Virus record (IMG/VR): IMGVR_UViG_3300045988_061146
DNA from: a virus
Length of the DNA: 37,258 nt
Direction: 5' to 3' (one strand)
This document shows positions 1 to 37,258 of the stretch, piece after piece (the stretch's first letter is position 1; each line of letters opens with the position of its first letter). A program made the position numbers and the translations under genes. The notes under the pieces were generated by a model that had not been told where the DNA came from, did no database searches, and saw only the letters and a list, made by a program, of their open reading frames with translations.

Positions 1-74
1 AACTTCTTCACGTCCAGACCAGCGGTCTTCACGACGATATTTTCAAGCATTTTCCGAACGGTCATTTTCTTCAT
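1..74 (-). CDS. 5' end (about 25 codons) of a hypothetical early gene. It is a duplicate of 37160..37233 caused by the circular-assembly overlap, and the gene continues off the left edge.
   Basis: Bases 1..99 are identical to 37160..37258. The reverse complement of 1..74 encodes MKKMTVRKMLENIVVKTAGLDVKKF, which matches the N-terminus of ORF 36967..37248. Confidence 0.5.
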   Translation of the reverse strand, partial: MKKMTVRKMLENIVVKTAGLDVKK

Positions 75-196
75 AACCGGGACCCCCACATAAAAAAATT
101 AGACTGTGCGAAGGCCGTTGACCTTTGCACAATCTAATATTAAATCCCGCCTACGCAAAAGTCAAGATTAAATTGTAAAAAACCTGAAAAAAGTTT

Positions 197-1249
197 TTAC
201 CCCAGGGCGGCCAGACCTTCGGCGAAGACTTCGTCAGCGGACCGGAAGCCCAGGATTTCGCGCGGGTAGGCGTTCAGCCAGTCTTCGACGGCCTGGATCT
301 CCTTCTTCGGGACCTGGCCGAAGTCGGTCCCCTTCGGAAACCAGCGCCGGATCATTCTGTTTATGTTCTCATTTGTGCCGCGTTCATAGGAAGAATACGG
401 GTGGCAGTAAAAGACCGTCGTCCGCTTGCCCTTCCGGCGACAGGACCGTTCCAGTCCTTCGACGTCGGCGAACTCGCTTCCGTTATCAACTGTAATCGTT
501 TGAAATATCTTGTAGAAAAGTGTTCCGTATCTGCGCTCAAGGCGATCAAGGGCCGCGACGACGCTTCCGGCGGTCTGGTCCTTCATTTTGATCATGATTT
601 CCTTCCGGGCCTTGCGTTCAGACAGGACCAGAAGCGTTTCCTTCGTCTTCTTCTTGCCTTCGACACAGTCCATTTCCCAGTGTCCGACTTCCTCGCGGGT
701 GTCGATTTCTGGGTCCCGCTTTTCAATGCTCTTTCCGGCCGACGCCCTGGCGGCCTTCTTGTTCTTCTTGACCTTCGTGTAGGGGCGCTTCTGCTTCCCC
801 TTGCATGGAAGGTGAACCATTTCCAGGGTCAGGAACACGCCCTTCTTGATGTAGGAATACAGGGTCGCTTCACAGATCGTTGTGTTGAACTGGATTCCCT
901 TCACCTTGATTTCGCCCAGGACGGCCGCCGGGGAATATCCGTCTTCGACGATCCGGCGTTCAATGTATTCGGCCAGTCGATAGTCCTTCCCGATCTTCAA
1001 GTCTGGACCCTTCGCGGCCAGGTGTTCACGGTATGCGGCTTCGGCTATGTCTGGGCTATACCGTTCTTCTTCGGTCCAGTCTGAATTTCTGTGGGTATAA
1101 CGCCCCCGCTTCAATTCGTTGTATATGGTGTTCCTGTGAACGCCGATTTCGTCGGCGATTTCCTGGACAGACTTTCCGCACTTCAAGAAGGCTTCGATCC
1201 GAAGGCGGTCATTCCAGGATAGATGTCTGAATCTGCGTCGCTTTGCCAT
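197..1249 (-). mobile_element. IS30-family DDE transposase CDS, 351 aa. The likely start is MAKRRRF at 1249, not the ORF-track M at 1378.
   Basis: N-terminal HTH (NDRLRIEAFLKCGKSVQEIADEIGVHRNTIYNELKRG) and a C-terminal DDE-type core (VDNGSEF ... YCHPYSSYERGTNEN) are typical of IS30 transposases. The RBS is GGGGGAAATACAC followed by ATG. The inverted-repeat ends of an IS could not be defined. Confidence 0.75.
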
Positions 1250-1269
1250 GTGTATTTCCCCCTTATAGC

Positions 1270-1313
1270 AAGAAAAAGGCCCCGCCCTCGCTGTTATGGC
1301 AAGGGTGGGGCCT
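1270..1313 (-). terminator. Rho-independent terminator downstream of the XRE repressor gene
   Basis: Stem ggccccgccct / agggtggggcc with a loop, and an A-run on the plus strand that gives a U-run on the minus strand. Confidence 0.55.
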
Positions 1314-1325
1314 TCGTGTGTATGT

Positions 1326-1538
1326 TCAAATAAGTTCGCGCGGGTGGACGCCCAGGGCGTCGGCGATCCGTAGGGCAACGGTCAGGGAAGCGCCTTCGAT
1401 TTTTCGTTCCCCGCTTTCGTACCTCTGGATCGCGCGGATATTGACGCCGGTTTTTTCCGCCAGGGCGGCCTGTGTCAGCCCCCGTTCACAGCGCAAGCGC
1501 GCGACTTTCGTTTCGCTTTTGGTGCTTCCGGATTTCAT
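1326..1538 (-). CDS. XRE-family HTH transcriptional regulator (CI/Cro-like), 70 aa
   Basis: LTQAALAEKTGVNIRAIQRYESGERKIEGASLTVALRIADALGV is a classic HTH_3 sequence. Confidence 0.8.
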   Translation of the reverse strand: MKSGSTKSETKVARLRCERGLTQAALAEKTGVNIRAIQRYESGERKIEGASLTVALRIADALGVHPRELI

Positions 1539-2643: not shown

Positions 2644-2684
2644 AAAAGGGCGGACGGGTGTTTCCCGTCCGCCTTTCTCATTTC
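2643..2684. terminator. Bidirectional rho-independent terminator
   Basis: aaaaaa GGGCGGACGGG tgtttc CCCGTCCGCC tttctcattt: a perfect 10-11 bp GC stem flanked by an A-run and a T-run. Confidence 0.8.
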
Positions 2685-3163
2685 ATGCGCTTGTTGATTT
2701 CCCTGGTGATCTTTCGGCTGACTCTGGCTTGCTGGTTGTTCTTTGTCCGCTTCACGGCTCGTTCCATAGTGAAATGGCCGCGCACATATCCGCCCTTCGG
2801 GCCGACGAACATTCCGCCTTCCGGGTCGTCCCGGTTATAGACGAATGTGTGGCCTTCCCAGTGACCAGGGACGAAGTGACTTCGGAATCCATGTTCCAGG
2901 TGGCTGGCATAGTCCAGGGGGTTGTAAAAACGGACGATGAACCGGCGGCCGGCGCGCTTCGCGGTCTGGTCGCTTTTCCAGTTCCGACGGTAGTCGCCAG
3001 TGTTGACGATGTCCGGAACGTCGGTTGTGCAAATTTTCCTTGCTTCTCCGACGGCGTACACGCCTTCGCCGACAGCGATCTTTGACATGATTTCCGGAAC
3101 TTCATCGGTCAGGGTTTGAAGGCCGCCGATAAACTGGACCAGGTCGTTCTTTTTTACGCTCAC
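2678..3163 (-). CDS. HK97 gp10-family phage protein, 161 aa, with a C-terminal extension
   Basis: TGDYRRNW and DYASHLEHG resemble the gp10 motifs (TGxLRNSI, EYAxYVEFG). It is the last gene of the late operon. Confidence 0.45.
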   Translation of the reverse strand: MSVKKNDLVQFIGGLQTLTDEVPEIMSKIAVGEGVYAVGEARKICTTDVPDIVNTGDYRRNWKSDQTAKRAGRRFIVRFYNPLDYASHLEHGFRSHFVPGHWEGHTFVYNRDDPEGGMFVGPKGGYVRGHFTMERAVKRTKNNQQARVSRKITREINKRMK

Positions 3164-5553: not shown

Positions 5554-7260
5554 TTATGCGAAACGGACCGTCGCCTGGATCACTTCGATCTGCTGGGTCC
5601 CCTTCGTCAGATAGAAGCGATAGGCCAGGCCGAAGCCCTTTGCGACGGTGGTATTCTTGAACGTGTGGACGAACTTCCCGACCTTGCTTGTGACGTCCTC
5701 CCAGACAGGGGCCGTGTCGAACGGGTTGTTCGTGACCTCGACGTGAAGGGTCGCGTCGGCCGGGTGGTCGGTGGGGTACAAGGACAGGAAGACCTTCGTC
5801 ACCTTCGCGTCGGTGGAGATCGCGCGGGACGCGGCGATCCTGTTGACGGTTCGGGTGAAGGTGATCTGGCGGGTTGCGCTTCCGCCAGCTCCGTCAGTGA
5901 CATAGATTTTCAGAACGTGGGTCCCGGTCAAAAGGCGAAGCCACACGCCGGACAGGTCCGCCGTGTTCTGGTGACCGCTGGTCGCCGTATAGGTCCGAAG
6001 GGTGATGGTTTCCGACCCGTTGGTCACGGTTTCCGTAACGGTCAACGTCTGGGACGCCGCTTCGCCGTCGGTGACGGTGTACTGGTGGGAGAACGGGGCC
6101 GTCTTCGCGCCGACATTCTGGTCGCTTCCGCTGATCACGGGGTTCGTGTTGTAGGAAATGGCCTGGGCGTTTCCGGTCCTGTATGCAGATTCAGCGCCGT
6201 TCGCGTCGACCGCCTTCACGCGGACCTGATAGTTTGTCCCACTCGACGGGACCGTGTCTGTGATGGATTTCGCCGACGTGATCCCGATCTGGGTGTAGGC
6301 TCCGGAATCGACCCGGCGTTCCCAGACATAACTGATCGCGTTCCCCTCCGGATCGGTGGACCCGCCGGTGGAGATCGTCAACTTCTGGCCGGCGCGCGGG
6401 GTCCCGTGGGAGATGGACGACGGGGTGGTGGGTGGCTGGTTCCATTGAAGGATATAAGCCCCGTCTGTATCCGTTGTATCAGATACCAGAGTGTCAGGGG
6501 CCAAAAATAAAGCCGGGCGAACGCCGTAGTCGCCGCCGCACGCACTGTTCCAGTACAGACTGCCGTCGGAATTGACATTCCGCACGTAGTACGCGTAGCC
6601 GGCGTGCGGGGTCAGAAGCCACCACCACCAGGGGGACGAAGTGTTCAGGTTGGAACTGGTATATTCGGACTTGCTGACCGCTTCCGCCGTCGGGTATGCA
6701 AGGCGGCTGTTGTTGTCGGTGAACAGGGGCCACTTCGTTCCCTCTGCGATCCCGTTTTCGTTGCCCAGGCCGACTTCGGTCATAGTCAGAAGACGGACCT
6801 TCCGCGTGATTCGCTCCGAACCGCCGCCGTCGGTGACGGTGTTTTTCGCGACGGTGATCGTGTCATTCAGAAGGGCGTTTCGGAAGTCGGCTTCGAAGAA
6901 GGACAGGAAGCCGGCTTCGGCCTGGTATTCGTTGTAGTTGGACCAGACGTTCGCGTTATCAGGCGGGGCGTCCTGTCCGTGCTGGGCGCTGTACCAGCCG
7001 CCAGGGCCGGCGGCACTGTTCAGCCATTGAAGAAGGTTCGCCACGGCGGCGCGGTTGTTGCCGTAATTTCTGCGGTCGCTGTTGCTGTTGTTCGGCTCTT
7101 TCGCGTCGAAGCATTTCAGGGAAATAATTCGCTCCGTCACCAGGCCAACGCGGTCGGAAGACTGGCGGCCGACTTTGAAGCGGATCACAGCGCCGTTATA
7201 CTTCGTGTTGACCGATTTCACCACCGCGCCGACGGGCAACGTCGACAATTTTTTCGACAT
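5554..7260 (-). CDS. DGR target protein 1. It has a C-type-lectin/DUF1566-like variable domain (residues about 60-255, VR1 at 217-250) followed by FN3/Ig-like beta domains. It is a putative tail fibre or receptor-binding protein.
   Basis: The motif SSPWWWWLLTPHAGYAYYVRNVNSDGSLYWNSACGGDYGVRPALFL (WW...VRP) is typical of lectin-fold DGR VRs. It contains VR1 (6513..6612). The RBS is AAATGGAGGAATACC followed by ATG. The gene sits in tail-fibre position between the baseplate genes and the lysis cassette. Confidence 0.8.
   Translation of the reverse strand: MSKKLSTLPVGAVVKSVNTKYNGAVIRFKVGRQSSDRVGLVTERIISLKCFDAKEPNNSNSDRRNYGNNRAAVANLLQWLNSAAGPGGWYSAQHGQDAPPDNANVWSNYNEYQAEAGFLSFFEADFRNALLNDTITVAKNTVTDGGGSERITRKVRLLTMTEVGLGNENGIAEGTKWPLFTDNNSRLAYPTAEAVSKSEYTSSNLNTSSPWWWWLLTPHAGYAYYVRNVNSDGSLYWNSACGGDYGVRPALFLAPDTLVSDTTDTDGAYILQWNQPPTTPSSISHGTPRAGQKLTISTGGSTDPEGNAISYVWERRVDSGAYTQIGITSAKSITDTVPSSGTNYQVRVKAVDANGAESAYRTGNAQAISYNTNPVISGSDQNVGAKTAPFSHQYTVTDGEAASQTLTVTETVTNGSETITLRTYTATSGHQNTADLSGVWLRLLTGTHVLKIYVTDGAGGSATRQITFTRTVNRIAASRAISTDAKVTKVFLSLYPTDHPADATLHVEVTNNPFDTAPVWEDVTSKVGKFVHTFKNTTVAKGFGLAYRFYLTKGTQQIEVIQATVRFA
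6513..6612 (-). repeat. DGR variable repeat VR1, cognate to the TR at 8492..8591
   Basis: It is a 100-bp copy of the TR. All 10 mismatches fall at positions that are adenine on the coding (minus) strand of the TR. Confidence 0.85.
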
Positions 7261-8323
7261 GGTATTCCTCCATTTCTTTTTTGAACAGGTCGTAGAACAG
7301 TTCGTTCGTCTGCCTGATCAAGTGATAACTGTTTCCGTGTTCAGCGTGGCCGGTCCAGGAAGAATATGACTGGACCACGGTTTCGAAGTCGATCCGCCCT
7401 TCGTCCAGAAGGTGACGGAACTTCTTCAACTTCCGCCTGATCCGATTCTTGCTGTCGCGGCGTATCTTGCGGACGACTTTCCCGCTGTCCGTCATGTACG
7501 TCCGGAAGCCCAGGAAGTCGATCCCCTGGGTCAGCGGGAACACGGCCGTTTTGTGATTCAACTCCAGCCCCAGCGGGACCAGGAACTTTTTGATTTCTTC
7601 CAGACAGTAAATCAGATAGTCCTTGTCCGGGTGGATCAGGAAGAAGTCGTCCATATATCGGCCGTAAAACTTGATTCCCAGACGTTCCTTGATCATGTGG
7701 TCCAGGCCGGACAGGTACAGGACCGCGAACCATTGTGAAGTGTGGTTCCCGATCGGGATTCCCGGTCCTTCCGTGGAGTCGATAATCAAGTCAAGAAGCC
7801 ACAACACGCCGGGATCGTCGATGATCCGGCGAAGTTGTGACTTCAAAACGTCGTGATTGATACTGTAAAAGTATTTTCTTATGTCACACTTCAAGACCCA
7901 GCCGTCCGCCCCGAACTGCCTGTAATATCGTTGCATGAACGCTTTCAGACGGTCCAGGCCGAAATGTGTTCCTTTGCCTTTCTGACTGGCGTAGTTGTCA
8001 AATATGAACGTCTTCGCAAGGCGCGGTTCCAGGACATTGTCGCATAGGCTGTGCTGAATAATTTTGTCCCGGAAGCCGTTATACATGATCAGGCGTTCCT
8101 TCGGTTCATGGACCAGGAAGTAATTGTAGGGCGAAGGGCGGTATTTCCGCGACGTCAGAAGGAAGTGAAGGGCCATTAGATTTTCCAACAGGTTCGCTTC
8201 GAAACGGACGACAGCGTATTTCCACCGCTTTCCCTTGCACGCTTCCAGATAGGCAGAATAAAGCCGGTTAAAATCTGCCATGACTTCAAAGTCAGAAGGC
8301 GGTTTCTGTTCAGTGTTCTTCAT
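7196..8323 (-). CDS. brt: DGR reverse transcriptase, 375 aa
   Basis: The RT palm motif YMDD (GRYMDDFFLI) and the DGR-specific IGNHTSQ motif are present, in place of the QGxxxSP of retron or group II RTs. It is adjacent to the TR and avd. Confidence 0.9.
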   Translation of the reverse strand: MKNTEQKPPSDFEVMADFNRLYSAYLEACKGKRWKYAVVRFEANLLENLMALHFLLTSRKYRPSPYNYFLVHEPKERLIMYNGFRDKIIQHSLCDNVLEPRLAKTFIFDNYASQKGKGTHFGLDRLKAFMQRYYRQFGADGWVLKCDIRKYFYSINHDVLKSQLRRIIDDPGVLWLLDLIIDSTEGPGIPIGNHTSQWFAVLYLSGLDHMIKERLGIKFYGRYMDDFFLIHPDKDYLIYCLEEIKKFLVPLGLELNHKTAVFPLTQGIDFLGFRTYMTDSGKVVRKIRRDSKNRIRRKLKKFRHLLDEGRIDFETVVQSYSSWTGHAEHGNSYHLIRQTNELFYDLFKKEMEEYHVEKIVDVARRRGGEIGQHEV

Positions 8324-8491
8324 AAAAATCTCCTTACCGCTTATAGTCTGGGCGTCGTACTGCCGAAGCCCTCGCGTCAGTAATCATGTGTTTACCCTGG
8401 CCTTTCCGGCGTCGGGAAGGATATGATCTCCTTTGTTGGGGTACTCTGTTTTCAGGTTCGTCGCCTTACTCGGTCGCGTTTTCCACCAAAT
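8324..8491 (-). ncRNA. Putative DGR spacer (Sp) RNA segment between the TR and the RT gene
   Basis: Its position is equivalent to the Sp region of characterised DGR RNAs and it holds no credible ORF. This is inference only. Confidence 0.3.
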
Positions 8492-8591
8492 CCGGGCGAA
8501 CGCCGTTGTTGCCGTTGTACGCATTGTTCCAGTTCAGACTGCCGTCGGAATTGACATTCCGCACGTTGTTCGCGTTGCCGGCGTTCGGGGT
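8492..8591 (-). repeat. DGR template repeat (TR)
   Basis: It is non-coding and AAC/AAT-rich on the minus strand, and would read TPNAGNANNVRNVNSDGSLNWNNAYNGNNGVRP in the VR frame. It is the consensus copy from which VR1 and VR2 differ only or mostly at adenines. It lies between avd and the RT. Confidence 0.85.
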
Positions 8592-8612
8592 ACAGATCAT
8601 ACCCTAATATCA

Positions 8613-9089
8613 TTAACCTTCCGTCTGGGTGGGCGGCTCCGCGACCGGCGCTTCGGCCTTTTCGGCTTCTTCGGCGGGCGCTTGCTCTGCCTTATACCAG
8701 GCGGCGGCCATGAACTTAACGTCCAGGGTGATCTTCGTCCAGTAGTCGAAGGTCCCTGTGTCGATATAGCCGCGCTTCTTTGACAATTCGATGAAGAACA
8801 GAAGCATTTTACAGGCCGTCAGGGCGTCCCGTTGAAGGGATAGCCGACGGACCTTGTCTTCTTCGTTCTGGATCGGGTAGATTTCATTCGCGGCCAGAAG
8901 TTTTTCATAGATCGACAGAACGTGATCCTGAATCCTGTTGACGATAGTGAAGCGGACCTTCTTCGGGAAGTGCTTCGTGTTGTCGGTCAGGTCCAGGGTG
9001 TAGTCGATCAGTTTTGACGCAACAGGAAGGACGTGAAGGGGACTTTCATTCCCATTCGCCTTCCGCTGATAGTTTTTCCGGGTTCCCAT
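8613..9089 (-). CDS. avd: DGR accessory variability determinant (Avd-like), about 158 aa from the internal M. The ORF-track M at 9188 is an alternative start.
   Basis: It is basic and helical with an Avd-like pattern (LIDYTLDLTDNTKHFPKKVRFTIVNRIQDHVLSIYEKLL ... LQRDALTACKMLLFFIEL). It is immediately upstream of the TR. The RBS is GCGAAGGTGTATCA followed by ATG. Confidence 0.6.
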   Translation of the reverse strand: MGTRKNYQRKANGNESPLHVLPVASKLIDYTLDLTDNTKHFPKKVRFTIVNRIQDHVLSIYEKLLAANEIYPIQNEEDKVRRLSLQRDALTACKMLLFFIELSKKRGYIDTGTFDYWTKITLDVKFMAAAWYKAEQAPAEEAEKAEAPVAEPPTQTEG

Positions 9090-9309
9090 TGATACACCTT
9101 CGCTTCCTGATTCTCTCGACGGTTTCACGCCGTCCGGAATAGTCGAAGCCATAGTCCCGAAGGACGACCGTCTGTTCTTCGCCTTCATAGGTCAAGCCGC
9201 ACAGGACGACGTTGTCGCCCTCACAGCGGCCGCACACGGGCCGAAGTTCCGTGAACAGGTTGGATAATAGGCACGACGTTTCCGGCGGCTTACAGGCGAA
9301 GCGGGTCAT
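9046..9309 (-). CDS. Cys-rich small protein, about 88 aa, a zinc-ribbon candidate. It overlaps the avd 5' end in another frame.
   Basis: MTRFACKPPETSCLLSNLFTELRPVCGRCEGDNVVLCGL. Its start overlaps the upstream stop as ATGA. Confidence 0.35.
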   Translation of the reverse strand: MTRFACKPPETSCLLSNLFTELRPVCGRCEGDNVVLCGLTYEGEEQTVVLRDYGFDYSGRRETVERIRKRRCINGNPEKLSAEGEWE

Positions 9310-28871: not shown

Positions 28872-29231
28872 TCACACGAACGCCTTTGGCGGCGTCACCA
28901 GGTCGGCCGAAGTCGGCCGCCACAGGTGCAAGCATAGGGCGTGGTTGTTGACGTAGTCTTCCTTTGCTGGGTGGTACTCGACAGCCCATTCGTCAGGCTC
29001 GAAGAACATATCCTTGATATGGCACATTTCTTCCCAGGTCGGACAGGTCTTTCGTTTTGTGTTACAAGGGGTAACGCTGACGTGATCCCAGCCGCCGCCG
29101 TTGCTGGCGATCACCATGAAGGACCTTCCGCCCACGAAGACCTTGAAGACGCCGTTATGTTCGTCGCCGGTGCTTCCGAATATATGGCGGGCGTCCACTC
29201 GGTACTTATTCAAATAATTTAGGTTTTTCAC
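28872..29231 (-). CDS. Conserved hypothetical phage protein, 119 aa
   Basis: Complete ORF with coupled start/stop (ATGA). The family was not recognised. Confidence 0.45.
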   Translation of the reverse strand: MKNLNYLNKYRVDARHIFGSTGDEHNGVFKVFVGGRSFMVIASNGGGWDHVSVTPCNTKRKTCPTWEEMCHIKDMFFEPDEWAVEYHPAKEDYVNNHALCLHLWRPTSADLVTPPKAFV

Positions 29232-29683
29232 TTCTTTTCCTCCGTTTTCACCAGCCGGGCCTGTTCCCAGAAGCCGCGCTCATGCGCGGCCTTCTCTTTT
29301 GCGCTTTCCATGACCTTTTCATAGTTCCGGTATCTGGCGCGCTTTGCTTCGGCTCCGGCCAGAATATCTTCAATAACCTGGTCGACCATGTCCGGCGGGT
29401 AGTAGTTCCGGGGGAACCGGCCGGATAGGTCGTTCTTTGGCTCCGTCAGGTTCAGAATGATATTGAACCGATAGGCCAGGTGTTTCTTCCCGGCGTGGTC
29501 TGCGATCCGAAGGCTGTTCGCCACGCCATAGTCGAACTTCAAATAAACGCTGTTAGTGGAATAGGCGTCGTAGCGGTGAATCAGGACCTTCCCGTCCAGC
29601 CGGTCGCACACATACGCCGCCAGGTCCCGGATTTTCTTCGTGTTCTTATTCACAGTCTTCACCTTCTCCATATTTTTGGTCAT
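29228..29683 (-). CDS. Hypothetical protein, about 151 aa from MTKNMEKV
   Basis: The internal start was chosen so the gene does not swallow the real zinc-ribbon gene upstream. The conserved-looking core is LIHRYDAYSTNSVYLKFDYGVANSLRIADHAGK. Confidence 0.4.
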   Translation of the reverse strand: MTKNMEKVKTVNKNTKKIRDLAAYVCDRLDGKVLIHRYDAYSTNSVYLKFDYGVANSLRIADHAGKKHLAYRFNIILNLTEPKNDLSGRFPRNYYPPDMVDQVIEDILAGAEAKRARYRNYEKVMESAKEKAAHERGFWEQARLVKTEEKK

Positions 29684-29915
29684 AGAAGACGCCGTCGAAA
29701 ATGTCGAAGTCGTCTGCGTCCCAGTACGCTTCGCAATCGGAACAAGCGGCGACAGCGACTTCCATTGGTCCGCCTTCGGCCTTTTTGAAGGTCTTCCGAA
29801 GGCGACCATTTCTTCCGACAACATGATCCAGCGAATACTGATACAGGAAGGACACGACGATTTTCCCGCCGCACAGCGGACAGCGGCTTCTTGGTGTGCC
29901 TTCATTTGATTTCAT
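29646..29915 (-). CDS. Zinc-ribbon protein, 89 aa
   Basis: CPLCGGK ... CSDCEAYW paired CxxC motifs. Confidence 0.5.
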   Translation of the reverse strand: MKSNEGTPRSRCPLCGGKIVVSFLYQYSLDHVVGRNGRLRKTFKKAEGGPMEVAVAACSDCEAYWDADDFDIFDGVFYDQKYGEGEDCE

Positions 29916-29921
29916 TCGGTT

Positions 29922-30284
29922 TCACGTCCTCCCCCAGTCTTGGTCCCCAGTTTCGCAAATATGGACGATGTGTTCGCACAGCGCCGGCGGTATTCGCGAC
30001 CGTTCCTTGCTCCCACTCAATCCCTGGGTCCCAGTCTTCGCCCCGCGCGGGGCCGGTATATGGCACGGGTCCCCATTGTGGCACGGTGGCCGGAACTCCG
30101 GGACCGGGTGATTTGTCCAGATGTCGGTCGGCTTCATACGGGTGTCCCCGTATTGGCAGTAGGTTACAGTGAACCGCCGAAGCCCAGACATAAAGTCCAT
30201 TTTCCGCATACCGCCGCGCGGGTTCTCGATGAACCACCAGGTCGGCGACAGCGACATGATCAGCCCGTGGACGTGCAGATTCAC
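29922..30284 (-). CDS. C-terminal half of a compact C5-cytosine DNA methyltransferase-like protein, motifs VI-X
   Basis: FIENPRGG matches the ENV motif. It is followed by RFTVTYCQYGDTRMKPTDIW and a C-terminal RIPPALCEHIV. Confidence 0.65.
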   Translation of the reverse strand: MNLHVHGLIMSLSPTWWFIENPRGGMRKMDFMSGLRRFTVTYCQYGDTRMKPTDIWTNHPVPEFRPPCHNGDPCHIPAPRGAKTGTQGLSGSKERSRIPPALCEHIVHICETGDQDWGRT

Positions 30285-30583
30285 GCGGTCGCAGAACTTG
30301 GCATATTCCGAAACTGCTTCCAGGTTCGTACCCCCCCCGCAGTGCGGCGGCGGTGTCTGCTGATTGCGGCGATACTGTACGTTGCACAGTCAGGGCTTGC
30401 CCAGATCACGTCAGGACGCCCAAACTTCTGAATAATTTCGTCCGGAGTTATTTGAAGGACATCTTTGTAAAGGTCGATATTTTCGAAGGACTTGTCCCAC
30501 TCGACAGAAAAGACTTCATGTCCACGCGCTTCGAACGCCTTCCCGATAGATCGCGTTCCGGCGAATAATTCAAGAACTTTCAT
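30281..30583 (-). CDS. N-terminal half of the same C5-methyltransferase-like protein (motifs I and IV, with an atypical SPDC instead of PCQ). It ends 50 nt after a G8 homopolymer, and its stop overlaps the downstream ATG as ATGA.
   Basis: MKVLELFAGTRS (motif I-like), SVEWDK, and DVIWASPDCATYSIAAIS (a motif IV variant). Confidence 0.65.
   Translation of the reverse strand: MKVLELFAGTRSIGKAFEARGHEVFSVEWDKSFENIDLYKDVLQITPDEIIQKFGRPDVIWASPDCATYSIAAISRHRRRTAGGVRTWKQFRNMPSSATA
30331..30338. repeat. C8/G8 homopolymeric tract inside the methyltransferase N-terminal half
   Basis: ccccccccgc on the plus strand, encoding A-G-G-V (gcg ggg ggg gta) on the minus strand. Confidence 0.6.
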
Positions 30584-30813
30584 TTTGAGTCACCTTCTTC
30601 CGGAATCGGTTCGTAGCAATCACAGCGGACGACGCGATCTTCTTCGTCTGCGCGGATCGGGCCTGGAAGGCCGGCGTCGGCCCTCTCGACCGCCTTCACG
30701 CAGTAGTCGCCTTCGCGCCCTTTGGCGTCGTCCTTGATGAACTGGACGTTCTGGCAGTTCCGACAGGAAAAGGCGTATTTCCACTTCGGAAGGGCCGGTT
30801 TTCTTCTTCTCAT
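30580..30813 (-). CDS. Small Cys-rich zinc-finger protein, 77 aa
   Basis: CRNCQN ... CDCYEP. Confidence 0.45.
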   Translation of the reverse strand: MRRRKPALPKWKYAFSCRNCQNVQFIKDDAKGREGDYCVKAVERADAGLPGPIRADEEDRVVRCDCYEPIPEEGDSK

Positions 30814-31082: not shown

Positions 31083-31759
31083 TCGTCTTCGTTGTCCTCT
31101 CTGGCGGCGATCCGGCGAAGGACTTCGTTCACAAGTTGCTTCGACGTGAAGCCGGTCAACAGGGCTTCGTCAGACAGTTCGATTTCCTCCTGATCCAGCG
31201 ACAGGCAGATTTCAGAGTCCACGAAAAAAGCCGGGCGAACGCTGTTGTTGCCGTTGTACGCATAGGCCCGGCTCAGACTGCCGCCGGAAGAGACATACCG
31301 CACGCGGTTCGCGCTGCCGGCGGTCGGGGTGATCGTCCATTCCCAGTCGTCGATCTCCAACAGGCCCGCGTCGTAATACTTCCGGACCAGGGGTTCGGGC
31401 AACATGGCGACCTTGCAGACGGCGACGCCGTAACGGTTCGTTCCGTCGTGGTCCTCCAGGCTCCACTCGGCTTCCAGGACCTTGTTCGCCGGGATCACGC
31501 CGGCGTCGTCCAGGGCGGACAGGAAGTCTTCGTTCAGGTCGAACCGAAGGGTGGAGAAGGCGAAGTTATTCGCGGCCGGCTCCGGCTCCATGCGGTTATA
31601 GGTGAATGGCCGGACGGTGAAGGGGCGGTTCCCGATCGGCTCCTTCGCGGCCAGAAGGGTTCGGCCGTCGGTGAAGTGTTCCAGGACGACCACTTCCACG
31701 GGGCCGGCGTTGAAGTAGGCCCCAGGGGCCAGGTTCTTAATTTTTGCGCTTACTGCCAT
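31079..31759 (-). CDS. DGR target protein 2. It is a small stand-alone C-type-lectin-like protein of about 226 aa from the internal M, with VR2 followed by an acidic tail of about 50 aa.
   Basis: It contains the 100-bp VR2, which translates to TPTAGSANRVRYVSSGGSLSRAYAYNGNNSVRPA. The RBS is AGGGAGGAAAACAAA followed by ATG. It sits in the early/replication operon and overlaps the end of rusA. Confidence 0.7.
   Translation of the reverse strand: MAVSAKIKNLAPGAYFNAGPVEVVVLEHFTDGRTLLAAKEPIGNRPFTVRPFTYNRMEPEPAANNFAFSTLRFDLNEDFLSALDDAGVIPANKVLEAEWSLEDHDGTNRYGVAVCKVAMLPEPLVRKYYDAGLLEIDDWEWTITPTAGSANRVRYVSSGGSLSRAYAYNGNNSVRPAFFVDSEICLSLDQEEIELSDEALLTGFTSKQLVNEVLRRIAAREDNEDE
31231..31330 (-). repeat. 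DGR variable repeat VR2 (remote)
   Basis: It is a 100-bp copy of the TR. Twelve of the 14 mismatches fall at TR adenine positions. It shares with VR1 the IMH variant cccggCttt, where the TR has cccggAttt. Coordinates are ±2 nt. Confidence 0.75.
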
Positions 31760-32150
31760 TTTGTTTTCCTCCCTCATATTCTTCGATCGTGACTTCGACG
31801 CGCGGGTTCTTCGGGTCCAGGGCGAAGTCGTCGCTGAATCCTTCAATTTCCGACCAGCCGTCATTTCGAAGGACGCCGGTTTCGACCAGGGCGTCCTGAA
31901 TGAACTTTTTCGCAAAGGCGATATTGTCCTTGTCGCGGCGGCGGCTGGGTTCGACCCACAGGTAGCGGATCACCACAGGACGGGTGAAGCGGACGCCCCG
32001 AAGTTGTGTTCGGATCATGTAGCCGATCGCGTTCTGGGCCTGGCGCTTCATGGAAGCGGCCTTGTACTTGCCCTTGTATGACCGTTCCGCGTCGATGTAC
32101 TCATTCAGTCCCGGCAACAGGCCGGGGATTGTCAGTTTATATTTCTTCAT
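31737..32150 (-). CDS. rusA: RusA-family Holliday junction resolvase, about 137 aa from MKKYKL
   Basis: MKKYKLTIPGLLPGLNEYIDAERSYKGKYKAASMKRQAQN...RRRDKDNIAFAKKFIQDALVETGVLRNDGW. Confidence 0.8.
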   Translation of the reverse strand: MKKYKLTIPGLLPGLNEYIDAERSYKGKYKAASMKRQAQNAIGYMIRTQLRGVRFTRPVVIRYLWVEPSRRRDKDNIAFAKKFIQDALVETGVLRNDGWSEIEGFSDDFALDPKNPRVEVTIEEYEGGKQNGSKRKN

Positions 32151-36973: not shown

Positions 36974-37233
36974 AGGTTTTTGTCGGGGTCCCCGTTGGTC
37001 TGCTCAACGTCCGGGTTGTAGATTACAGTGACGACGTCTTCGTAACGCTTCGCGGCCACGATTTCGACTTCCCACAGGACATTCCACGTCGCGACCTTGC
37101 AGATCAAATCGACCGCAAAGTCAGCCGTGACGACTTCGCCGTCCATAGACACCAGGTAGAACTTCTTCACGTCCAGACCAGCGGTCTTCACGACGATATT
37201 TTCAAGCATTTTCCGAACGGTCATTTTCTTCAT
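36967..37233 (-). CDS. Hypothetical early protein, about 88 aa from MKKMTVRK
   Basis: Its first 25 codons are duplicated at window positions 1..74 because of the assembly overlap. Confidence 0.4.
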   Translation of the reverse strand: MKKMTVRKMLENIVVKTAGLDVKKFYLVSMDGEVVTADFAVDLICKVATWNVLWEVEIVAAKRYEDVVTVIYNPDVEQTNGDPDKNLW

Positions 37234-37258
37234 AACCGGGACCCCCACATAAAAAAAT

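Follow-up and report, generated by a model that had tools for sequence, protein, structure and literature searches.

The viral DNA recorded in IMG/VR as IMGVR_UViG_3300045988_061146 (37,258 nucleotides; this whole stretch is called the window below) carries a diversity-generating retroelement (DGR). Its parts follow one another on the minus strand as an avd gene, a template repeat (TR), a spacer, a reverse transcriptase (RT) gene and a first target gene that contains a variable repeat (VR1); a second target gene, with a second variable repeat (VR2), lies elsewhere in the genome (Table 1). A preliminary description of the window had placed a complete cassette between positions 5554 and 9089, and all five of its parts lie where it had put them, on the minus strand. 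The element reaches further than this, however, because it also has a second target 22.7 kb off and a small open reading frame (ORF) upstream of avd. The phages nd12 (GenBank OR777946), nd4 (OR777945) and FP_Brigit (MG711465) serve for comparison throughout.

Table 1. Parts of the retroelement and other features of the window, with their coordinates (aa, amino acids; nt, nucleotides; Ig, immunoglobulin).
Feature	Coordinates	Strand	Remarks
avd, Avd-like four-helix bundle, 158 aa	8613..9089	-	profile and fold match
Template repeat (TR)	8492..8591	-	100 nt, 28 adenines, 12 AAY (Asn) codons in the VR frame
TR-RT spacer, structured RNA (from covariation)	8324..8491	-	presumed DGR 'Sp' priming/RT-binding region; starts at the A/C boundary (candidate IMH*)
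DGR reverse transcriptase, 375 aa	7196..8323	-	IGNHTSQ and YMDD motifs
Target 1, 'tentaclin', 568 aa	5554..7260	-	N-terminal DUF6273 lectin-like domain, then Ig-like domains
VR1	6513..6612	-	codons 217-250 of target 1
Target 2, small single-domain DUF6273 protein, 226-232 aa	31079..31777	-	start at 31777 or 31759
VR2	31231..31330	-	third repeat copy, inside target 2
Open frame of 44 codons around the TR, in VR register	8465..8599	-	equivalent ORF in the relative L029 found by one gene caller, weak DUF6273 match
Cys-rich ORF, 87 aa	9046..9309	-	phrog_21058, E 8e-22; coding GC3 pattern
Tail-fibre-like protein, 254 aa	9306..10070	-	phrog_7037 'tail fiber protein', E 6e-35
Two small paralogous ORFs, 45 and 61 aa	5064..5386	-	downstream of target 1; 39-nt direct repeat, 72% identity
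HK97 gp10-like tail-component gene	2678..3163	-	after the lysis cassette, away from the tail module
Integrase, IS30-like DDE transposase	197..1378	-	HTH_38 and rve; phrog_4646
C5 cytosine methyltransferase, apparently split by a frameshift into two ORFs	29922..30583	-	FAGxG, SPDC and ENP motifs

The differences between the three repeat copies are concentrated at adenines of the template and are not spread over the four bases, both in the window and in the population described below. The TR and VR1 match at 89 of 100 positions, with all 11 mismatches at TR adenines (hypergeometric P = 1.5e-7), and the TR and VR2 match at 86 of 100, with 12 of the 14 mismatches at TR adenines (P = 1.8e-6). Translated in the frame of the variable repeats, the TR reads TPNAGNANNVRNVNSDGSLNWNNAYNGNNGVRP; 16 of its codons are changeable, no stop codon can be reached by substitution of adenines, and about 3e16 peptides are possible. 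The homology of the repeats stops at 8491, where the TR has a fixed A and every VR copy examined has a C. That the TR is non-coding, as was first proposed, is plausible, but it lies inside an open frame of 44 codons in the register of the variable repeats, which is probably a remnant rather than a gene.

A population of natural relatives was collected by a degenerate TR/VR pattern and an exact-protein look-up, which together yielded about 30 viral and metagenomic contigs 92-99% identical to the window; the evidence drawn from it is variation between genomes. The TR is present in three alleles among 18 population copies, whereas all 19 copies of VR1 and all eight copies of VR2 are distinct. Compared with the TR of their own genome, the variable repeats show 232 differences, 223 of them at adenines (A>G 111, A>T 78, A>C 34), and 27 of the 28 TR adenines have been seen mutated. 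Nucleotide diversity at the adenine sites reaches 0.55 in VR1 and 0.58 in VR2, as opposed to 0.04 at the other VR sites and 0.03 at the adenine sites of the TR itself. TR alleles 2 and 3 differ from the allele of the window at non-adenine positions, and the VR1 copies in genomes with allele 2 or allele 3 bear exactly the non-adenine bases of that allele; the VR2 copies of two relatives (L006 and L018) bear those of allele 2. Since the variable repeats track their own TR allele, information has flowed from the TR to both of them since the alleles diverged. In the protein sequences, the variability of 56 homologues of target 1 is limited to residues 219-245, with up to 12 different residues in a column. 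This adenine-specific variation between genomes, which follows the TR alleles, indicates that the DGR has worked in natural populations. In one close relative (L029, 10767..11537) the RT is internally deleted (256 aa) while VR1 still has 17 of 18 differences at adenines; this is a recently disabled cassette.

The RT carries the YMDD motif (residues 223-226, nt 7646..7657) together with the DGR-specific IGNHTSQ motif (residues 191-197, nt 7733..7753), just as had been described, and a ribosome-binding site (AAGGAG) lies 7 nt before its ATG. Its best match in PDB is the RT of the DGR of Bordetella phage BPP-1 (8ub7_A; E 4.5e-43, 151 bits, residues 17-339), followed by retron-type and group II intron RTs at about 45 bits (group II intron about 1e-10), and Pfam RVT_1 matches it at 1.7e-15. 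By the scores of the PDB search, the enzyme appears to group with those of DGRs and not with group II intron or retron RTs, in line with its first assignment.

The product of the gene upstream of the TR is very probably Avd, to judge from profile and predicted fold. NCBIfam DivGenRetAVD matches it over the whole profile (1-104 of 104, E 5e-7), and its homologues carry PF22296/PF05635. The AlphaFold model consists of four helices with a core pLDDT of about 90, and Foldseek aligns it with the Avd of Bordetella phage (4dwl; target-normalised TM 0.87, rmsd 1.9 A) and with the Avd chains of the RT-Avd-RNA complex 8ub7 (TM 0.76-0.83). The start of avd at 9089 was correctly chosen: an AAGG site lies upstream, and the commonest homologues have 158 aa. 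An alternative start at 9188, which would give the longest ORF, was discarded, as 9090..9188 does not have the coding GC3 pattern.

The spacer between TR and RT had been given as 167 nt and is in fact 168 nt long. Covariation marks it as a conserved structured RNA: long sequence blocks are kept among relatives whose RTs are 59-87% identical, and of the 20 base pairs that RNAalifold predicts, 7 show compensatory changes. Of the alignment cells, 96.7% are paired, compared to 35-58% in slid controls, and 25 cells are changed on both sides, compared to 5 or fewer in the controls; independent compensatory events are few because the alignment has only three clades. In one helix, the nucleotides that directly follow the TR pair with those that directly precede the ribosome-binding site of the RT. 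The structure is visible only across relatives, the single-sequence fold of TR plus spacer being not significant (z -1.45). Rfam RT-2 matches the spacer weakly (19.5 bits, with a gathering score of 40 bits; E 0.012), and Rfam gave no match in the nd12 or Brigit loci. RT-2 is among the RT-associated motifs of Weinberg et al. 2017, and RT-10 occupies the same position in BPP-1 (PMC5737381).

Target 1 belongs with the tentaclins, proteins in which an N-terminal C-type-lectin-like domain with the VR is followed by one to four Ig-like domains (Baykov et al. 2023, PMC10743442). It is 44-45% identical to the tentaclins of nd12 and nd4 over 98% of its length (E 5e-131) and matches phrog_10993 ('Hoc-like head decoration') over its full length (7e-208). 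Pfam DUF6273 covers residues 40-254 (5e-31), within which VR1 is located. Pfam Big_9 gives a weak match, and for the Ig-like region a solved 'Tail fiber protein' is found at E 1.5e-6. The profile of the protein also reaches the N-terminal region of an IgA protease of Thomasclavelia ramosa (9qa6; E 1.5e-11), and its C-terminal 200 aa align at 33-37% identity to proteins of FP_Mushu, FP_Toutatis and FP_Brigit. A seven-residue consensus in the C-terminal Ig domain of tentaclins has been proposed as the virion anchor by Baykov et al. (PMC10743442). The gene overlaps that of the RT by 65 nt, as had been stated. Two findings confirm the overlap: the ATG at 7260 is preceded, at a distance of 5 nt, by a GGAGGA site, and the alignments with phrog_10993 and with the nd12 protein start at residue 1. 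A TTG start 21 nt downstream, preferred by some gene callers, is less likely than this ATG.

Target 2 consists of a single DUF6273 domain (Pfam 9.6e-6), matches phrog_9958 over its full length (1e-40) and is homologous to the second targets of nd4 and nd12. It lies just downstream of RusA in the replication and recombination module, with the genes of a DnaC-like protein, a replication initiator and an Erf-like protein further upstream, and its N-terminus, judged by eye only, has no obvious hydrophobic signal-like segment. Its place among replication genes and the lack of an obvious signal segment make a role outside the virion possible, and target 2 could be an intracellular binder diversified by the DGR, for instance against variable targets of host defence or takeover.

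The best explanation of these observations, and one that we hold with high confidence, is an intact DGR with an avd-TR-RT core and two targets in a temperate, contractile-tailed Faecalibacterium phage of about 37 kb. We infer its mechanism from the DGR of BPP-1 (structures 8ub7-8ube). By analogy, the TR and the structured spacer would be transcribed together; a complex of RT and Avd would bind the spacer RNA, reverse-transcribe the TR and misincorporate nucleotides opposite template adenines; and the resulting cDNA would replace the homologous 100 nt in VR1 and VR2. The outcome would be that 16 codons are rewritten at the end of the DUF6273 lectin-like domain. The transfer from TR to VR is proposed to be one-way because the 3' ends of the TR and of the variable repeats differ from 8491 onward. 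The priming chemistry, the role of Avd, and the binding of a ligand or receptor as the purpose of both targets we infer likewise.

Several observations weigh against this explanation or parts of it. VR2 has two differences from the TR that are not at adenines. Avd scores below the curated cutoffs (30 of 80 bits in NCBIfam, 19.9 of 40 bits for Pfam bAvd), PDB searches with Avd, both as a single sequence and as a profile, did not reach bAvd, and Foldseek gives only weak E-values, none below 1e-3. On the 3' side of VR1 and VR2 a search for a stable hairpin or cruciform was negative (z -0.1 and -0.4 against shuffled sequence) and gave only short, non-homologous inverted repeats, which lie 44-60 nt downstream. 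Since no hairpin of the BPP-1 type was detected, the targets may be recognised through the GC-rich terminus of the VR together with the nucleotides that directly follow it. Past the boundary at 8491, VR1 and VR2 share 15 of 22 nt with each other and 7 of 22 with the TR (counted by eye), a likeness that could equally be explained by their common protein motif GVRPA(L/F)F. The AlphaFold model of target 1, built on an alignment of 56 close homologues, has a mean pLDDT of 49.8: it shows beta-rich modules for residues 290-568 and did not confirm a lectin fold in residues 1-288, where pLDDT is below 50. A lectin-fold target with VR1 had been described, and VR1 does lie in the DUF6273 lectin-like domain, but the fold itself receives no support from the model. 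Because the prediction of the N-terminal domain failed, the fold rests on the family assignment, that is, on the Pfam match and the published models of proteins 45% identical, which suggest it. Furthermore, a place on the virion is only putative for both targets; the tentaclin may be a receptor-binding protein at a distal position, or it may decorate the tail or the capsid. Finally, the analogous prophage CP11 showed no variation at the level of reads (PMC11792537).

The function of target 1 can also be read differently. On this reading the DGR is real, but target 1 is a Hoc-like decoration of the capsid or tail surface, whose diversified, lectin-like tip would bind mucus glycans, the bacterial capsule or other environmental ligands and not the entry receptor; we consider this possible, if on the whole unlikely. 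The annotations of phrog_10993, FP_Brigit and FP_Mushu do say 'Hoc-like head decoration', binding to mucus was proposed by Cornuault et al. (PMC5883640), and binding to intestinal or immune cells was left open by Baykov et al. (PMC10743442). Moreover, the fibre position is already taken. The cassette was first thought to sit exactly in the tail-fibre slot, and it does lie near it; the slot itself, however, holds the separate tail-fibre-like gene, which follows the baseplate-J-like and Mu gp48-like genes and whose phrog_7037 match covers only the N-terminal 267 of 480 profile positions, and the cassette comes after it. On the other hand, the 'Hoc-like' label is based on Ig-like domains alone, and the Hoc protein of T4 has no lectin domain and another anchoring domain (Baykov et al., PMC10743442). 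The gene for target 1 lies outside the head module, between the tail-fibre gene and the CD1375-like, XhlA, holin and lysin genes. This position, together with the match of the Ig-like region to a solved tail fibre, favours a tentaclin on the tail.

Alternatively, the DGR of the window might be a recently inactivated relic, the diversity of its variable repeats reflecting past activity or recombination between lineages. CP11 without read-level variation, the relative L029 with its deleted RT and still diversified VR1, and the two non-adenine changes in VR2 of the window would fit such a history. The parts in the window are nevertheless intact, with a full-length RT bearing YMDD, good ribosome-binding sites and an unmutated TR; all 27 sampled variable repeats are unique despite genome identities of 92-99%, and they follow their own TR allele. 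We regard inactivation as improbable. That the RT comes from a retron, a group II intron or a defence system, and that the three repeats are ordinary paralogous repeats of lectin-domain genes, is a notion to which we attach practically no weight: the top NCBIfam match of the RT is indeed a group II intron RT/maturase (E 5e-29), followed by Drt3a, with no DGR-RT model matched, and homologues are labelled 'retron-type' in several GenBank phage records, but the group II match reaches 101 bits where the cutoff is 300, the structure of the BPP-1 enzyme (bRT) outscores every retron-type and group II intron structure by far, one of the repeats sits immediately upstream of the RT and is not part of any target gene, the mismatches are specific to adenines, and the population shows hardly any variation in the template copy.

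Elements of this type have been published for human-gut phages since 2018 (PMC5883640, PMC10743442, PMC11792537). The order avd-TR-RT-target, which the preliminary description set apart from the textbook arrangement, is real and within the ordinary range of DGRs: Wu et al. 2018 list it as architecture B1, an avd-TR-RT core with a variable position of the target, and the same authors documented non-adjacent second targets within prophages (PMC5758913). The order small ORF-avd-TR-RT-tentaclin is kept in 41 of 41 related viral contigs and also in nd12, nd4 and FP_Brigit, and the VR sits about 600-760 nt downstream of the RT gene in this arrangement.

The phages nd12 and nd4 (PMC10743442) share with the window the small ORF, avd, the TR, the RT and a tentaclin with the VR near the 5' third of its gene, as well as a non-adjacent small DUF6273 target in a non-structural region with the VR near its 3' end. 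They also share an AAY-rich TR, a VR motif ending in GVRPA and a comparably small gut-phage genome. They differ in sequence (RT identity 62% for nd12 and 47% for nd4, tentaclin 44-45%, Avd 46%) and have no similarity at the nucleotide level except in the amidase gene; in nd12-like loci no relationship is detectable for the tail-fibre gene upstream. For nd4, Baykov et al. found one prophage, in Flavonifractor, and for nd12 none (PMC10743442), whereas the phage of the window is a Faecalibacterium prophage.

A similar layout is that of CP11, a candidate prophage of 35.7 kb in Faecalibacterium sp900539885 HTF-128 (NODE_4, 179,869-215,597) with one TR and two VRs (PMC11792537, 2024). It likewise has a large and a small DUF6273 target, and its 37 cognate IMG/VR genomes vary adenine-specifically at both VRs (PMC11792537). 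The spacings from TR to VR, compared by published coordinates, are 1933 and 22822 nt in CP11, and 1979 and 22739 nt in the window; as they are off by 46 and 83 nt, the layout is alike and the genome is not the same.

According to Cornuault et al. 2018 (PMC5883640), 10 of 18 Faecalibacterium phages carry DGRs, and the targets of those in Brigit and Mushu are 'Hoc-like'. FP_Brigit, which has a Faecalibacterium host too, shows the same succession of a tail protein, a small Cys-rich ORF, an Avd-like protein, the TR, the RT and a 'Hoc-like' target, followed by lysis genes. Its RT is 45% identical to that of the window, its target 34% identical over 77% of the length and equipped with four Ig-like domains (PMC10743442), and its genome of 61.7 kb belongs to another genus. 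The Avd-like protein of FP_Brigit has 264 aa and was not recognised as Avd by Cornuault et al. (PMC5883640).

With BPP-1 (mtd-avd-TR-brt) the window shares a homologous RT, the predicted fold of Avd, adenine-specific differences between TR and VR, a putatively lectin-type variable domain and a structured spacer between TR and RT (RT-10 in BPP-1, PMC5737381; a weak RT-2 here). In contrast to BPP-1, the adjacent target lies downstream of the RT and not upstream of avd, its VR is found in the N-terminal third of a multidomain protein and not at the C-terminus, the targets are two DUF6273 proteins instead of the Mtd/FGE-sulfatase type, and there is no detectable hairpin 3' of the VRs.

The conserved neighbourhood includes one ORF that the textbook cassette does not name. 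The Cys-rich ORF overlaps the start of avd by 44 nt and also overlaps the stop codon of the tail-fibre gene. All 41 related loci have a homologue immediately before avd, of about 60-127 aa across the relatives examined, as does FP_Brigit, where it is unannotated. Its presence extends to the nd12-like clade, in which no relationship is detectable for the fibre gene upstream. It is inherited together with the cassette. No match was found in Pfam or PDB, and a word-indexed homologue search returned only relatives of at least 65% identity. The ORF is the best lead here for something new: it could encode an unrecognised accessory factor that acts with Avd and the RT, or an adaptor of the tentaclin. 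The joint claim that the conserved unit is larger than the textbook DGR, with the Cys-rich ORF as a possible fifth component and target 2 as a possibly non-structural one, seems doubtful to us.

The genome that carries the element has, by its gene content, the layout of a PBSX-like contractile-tailed temperate phage. The first 99 nt of the window are repeated exactly and in direct orientation at its end (1..99 and 37160..37258), which points to a circular assembly, or to a terminally redundant genome, of about 37.16 kb unique sequence. The G+C content is 57%, and essentially every gene is on the minus strand. In the order of transcription, early genes are followed by those of an Erf-like protein, a replication initiator, a DnaC-like loader and RusA; then come the terminase, portal and head genes, the tail sheath, tube, XkdN-like chaperone and tape measure, the LysM, YqbQ, baseplate-J and Mu gp48-like baseplate genes, the tail-fibre-like protein and the DGR cassette; three small ORFs (two of them weakly CD1375-like), XhlA-like, holin and amidase genes and, finally, regulators and the IS30-like DDE integrase close the series. 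The contractile-tailed temperate phage of Clostridia type that had been suggested is borne out on each count: sheath, tube and PBSX-like baseplate genes are present, prophage copies are embedded in bacterial contigs of up to 250 kb, and the host is Faecalibacterium. This host is named because a near-identical Avd protein is listed by NCBI as 'four helix bundle protein [Faecalibacterium prausnitzii]', and it is consistent with the G+C content and with the prophage copies in bacterial contigs. The near-identical Avd is present on at least 1000 public contigs; the TR/VR pattern had no match at the DNA level among species-representative genomes. A megablast search of 25 kb against GenBank phages matched solely the amidase gene of nd12, so that the phage records deposited there include no close relative.

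Near-identical prophages (loci L025-L032) are flanked by differing host genes (DegV, SpoIIP, an MscS-type channel, an ABC transporter), which suggests transposition-like integration at many sites. Both small paralogous ORFs downstream of target 1 give a weak match to Pfam CD1375-like, below threshold, and an XhlA-like gene comes next. The halves of the methyltransferase are an ORF at 30281..30583 with FAGxG and SPDC and another at 29922..30284 with ENP. The region 28874..30590 is replaced by unrelated sequence of other length in four relatives that are otherwise 96-99% identical (L005, L011, L014 and L018), and is a mosaic hotspot within the early region.

Our analysis shows that the retroelement is real, complete and rightly read as a DGR, and that it is ordinary for Faecalibacterium and for gut phages. 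It reveals no new mechanism, as architecture, target family and host association have all been published; what is added here is the conserved Cys-rich ORF of 87 aa upstream of avd and the covarying spacer RNA. As a DGR with two targets, the element of the window is a clean, complete and abundant case, carried by a prophage of an important bacterium of the human gut, Faecalibacterium, and dozens of natural VR alleles with tracked TR alleles are already public. It is thus a convenient natural system for asking what the tentaclins and the small second target bind, why one template serves two different proteins, and whether the conserved small ORF contributes to the mechanism.

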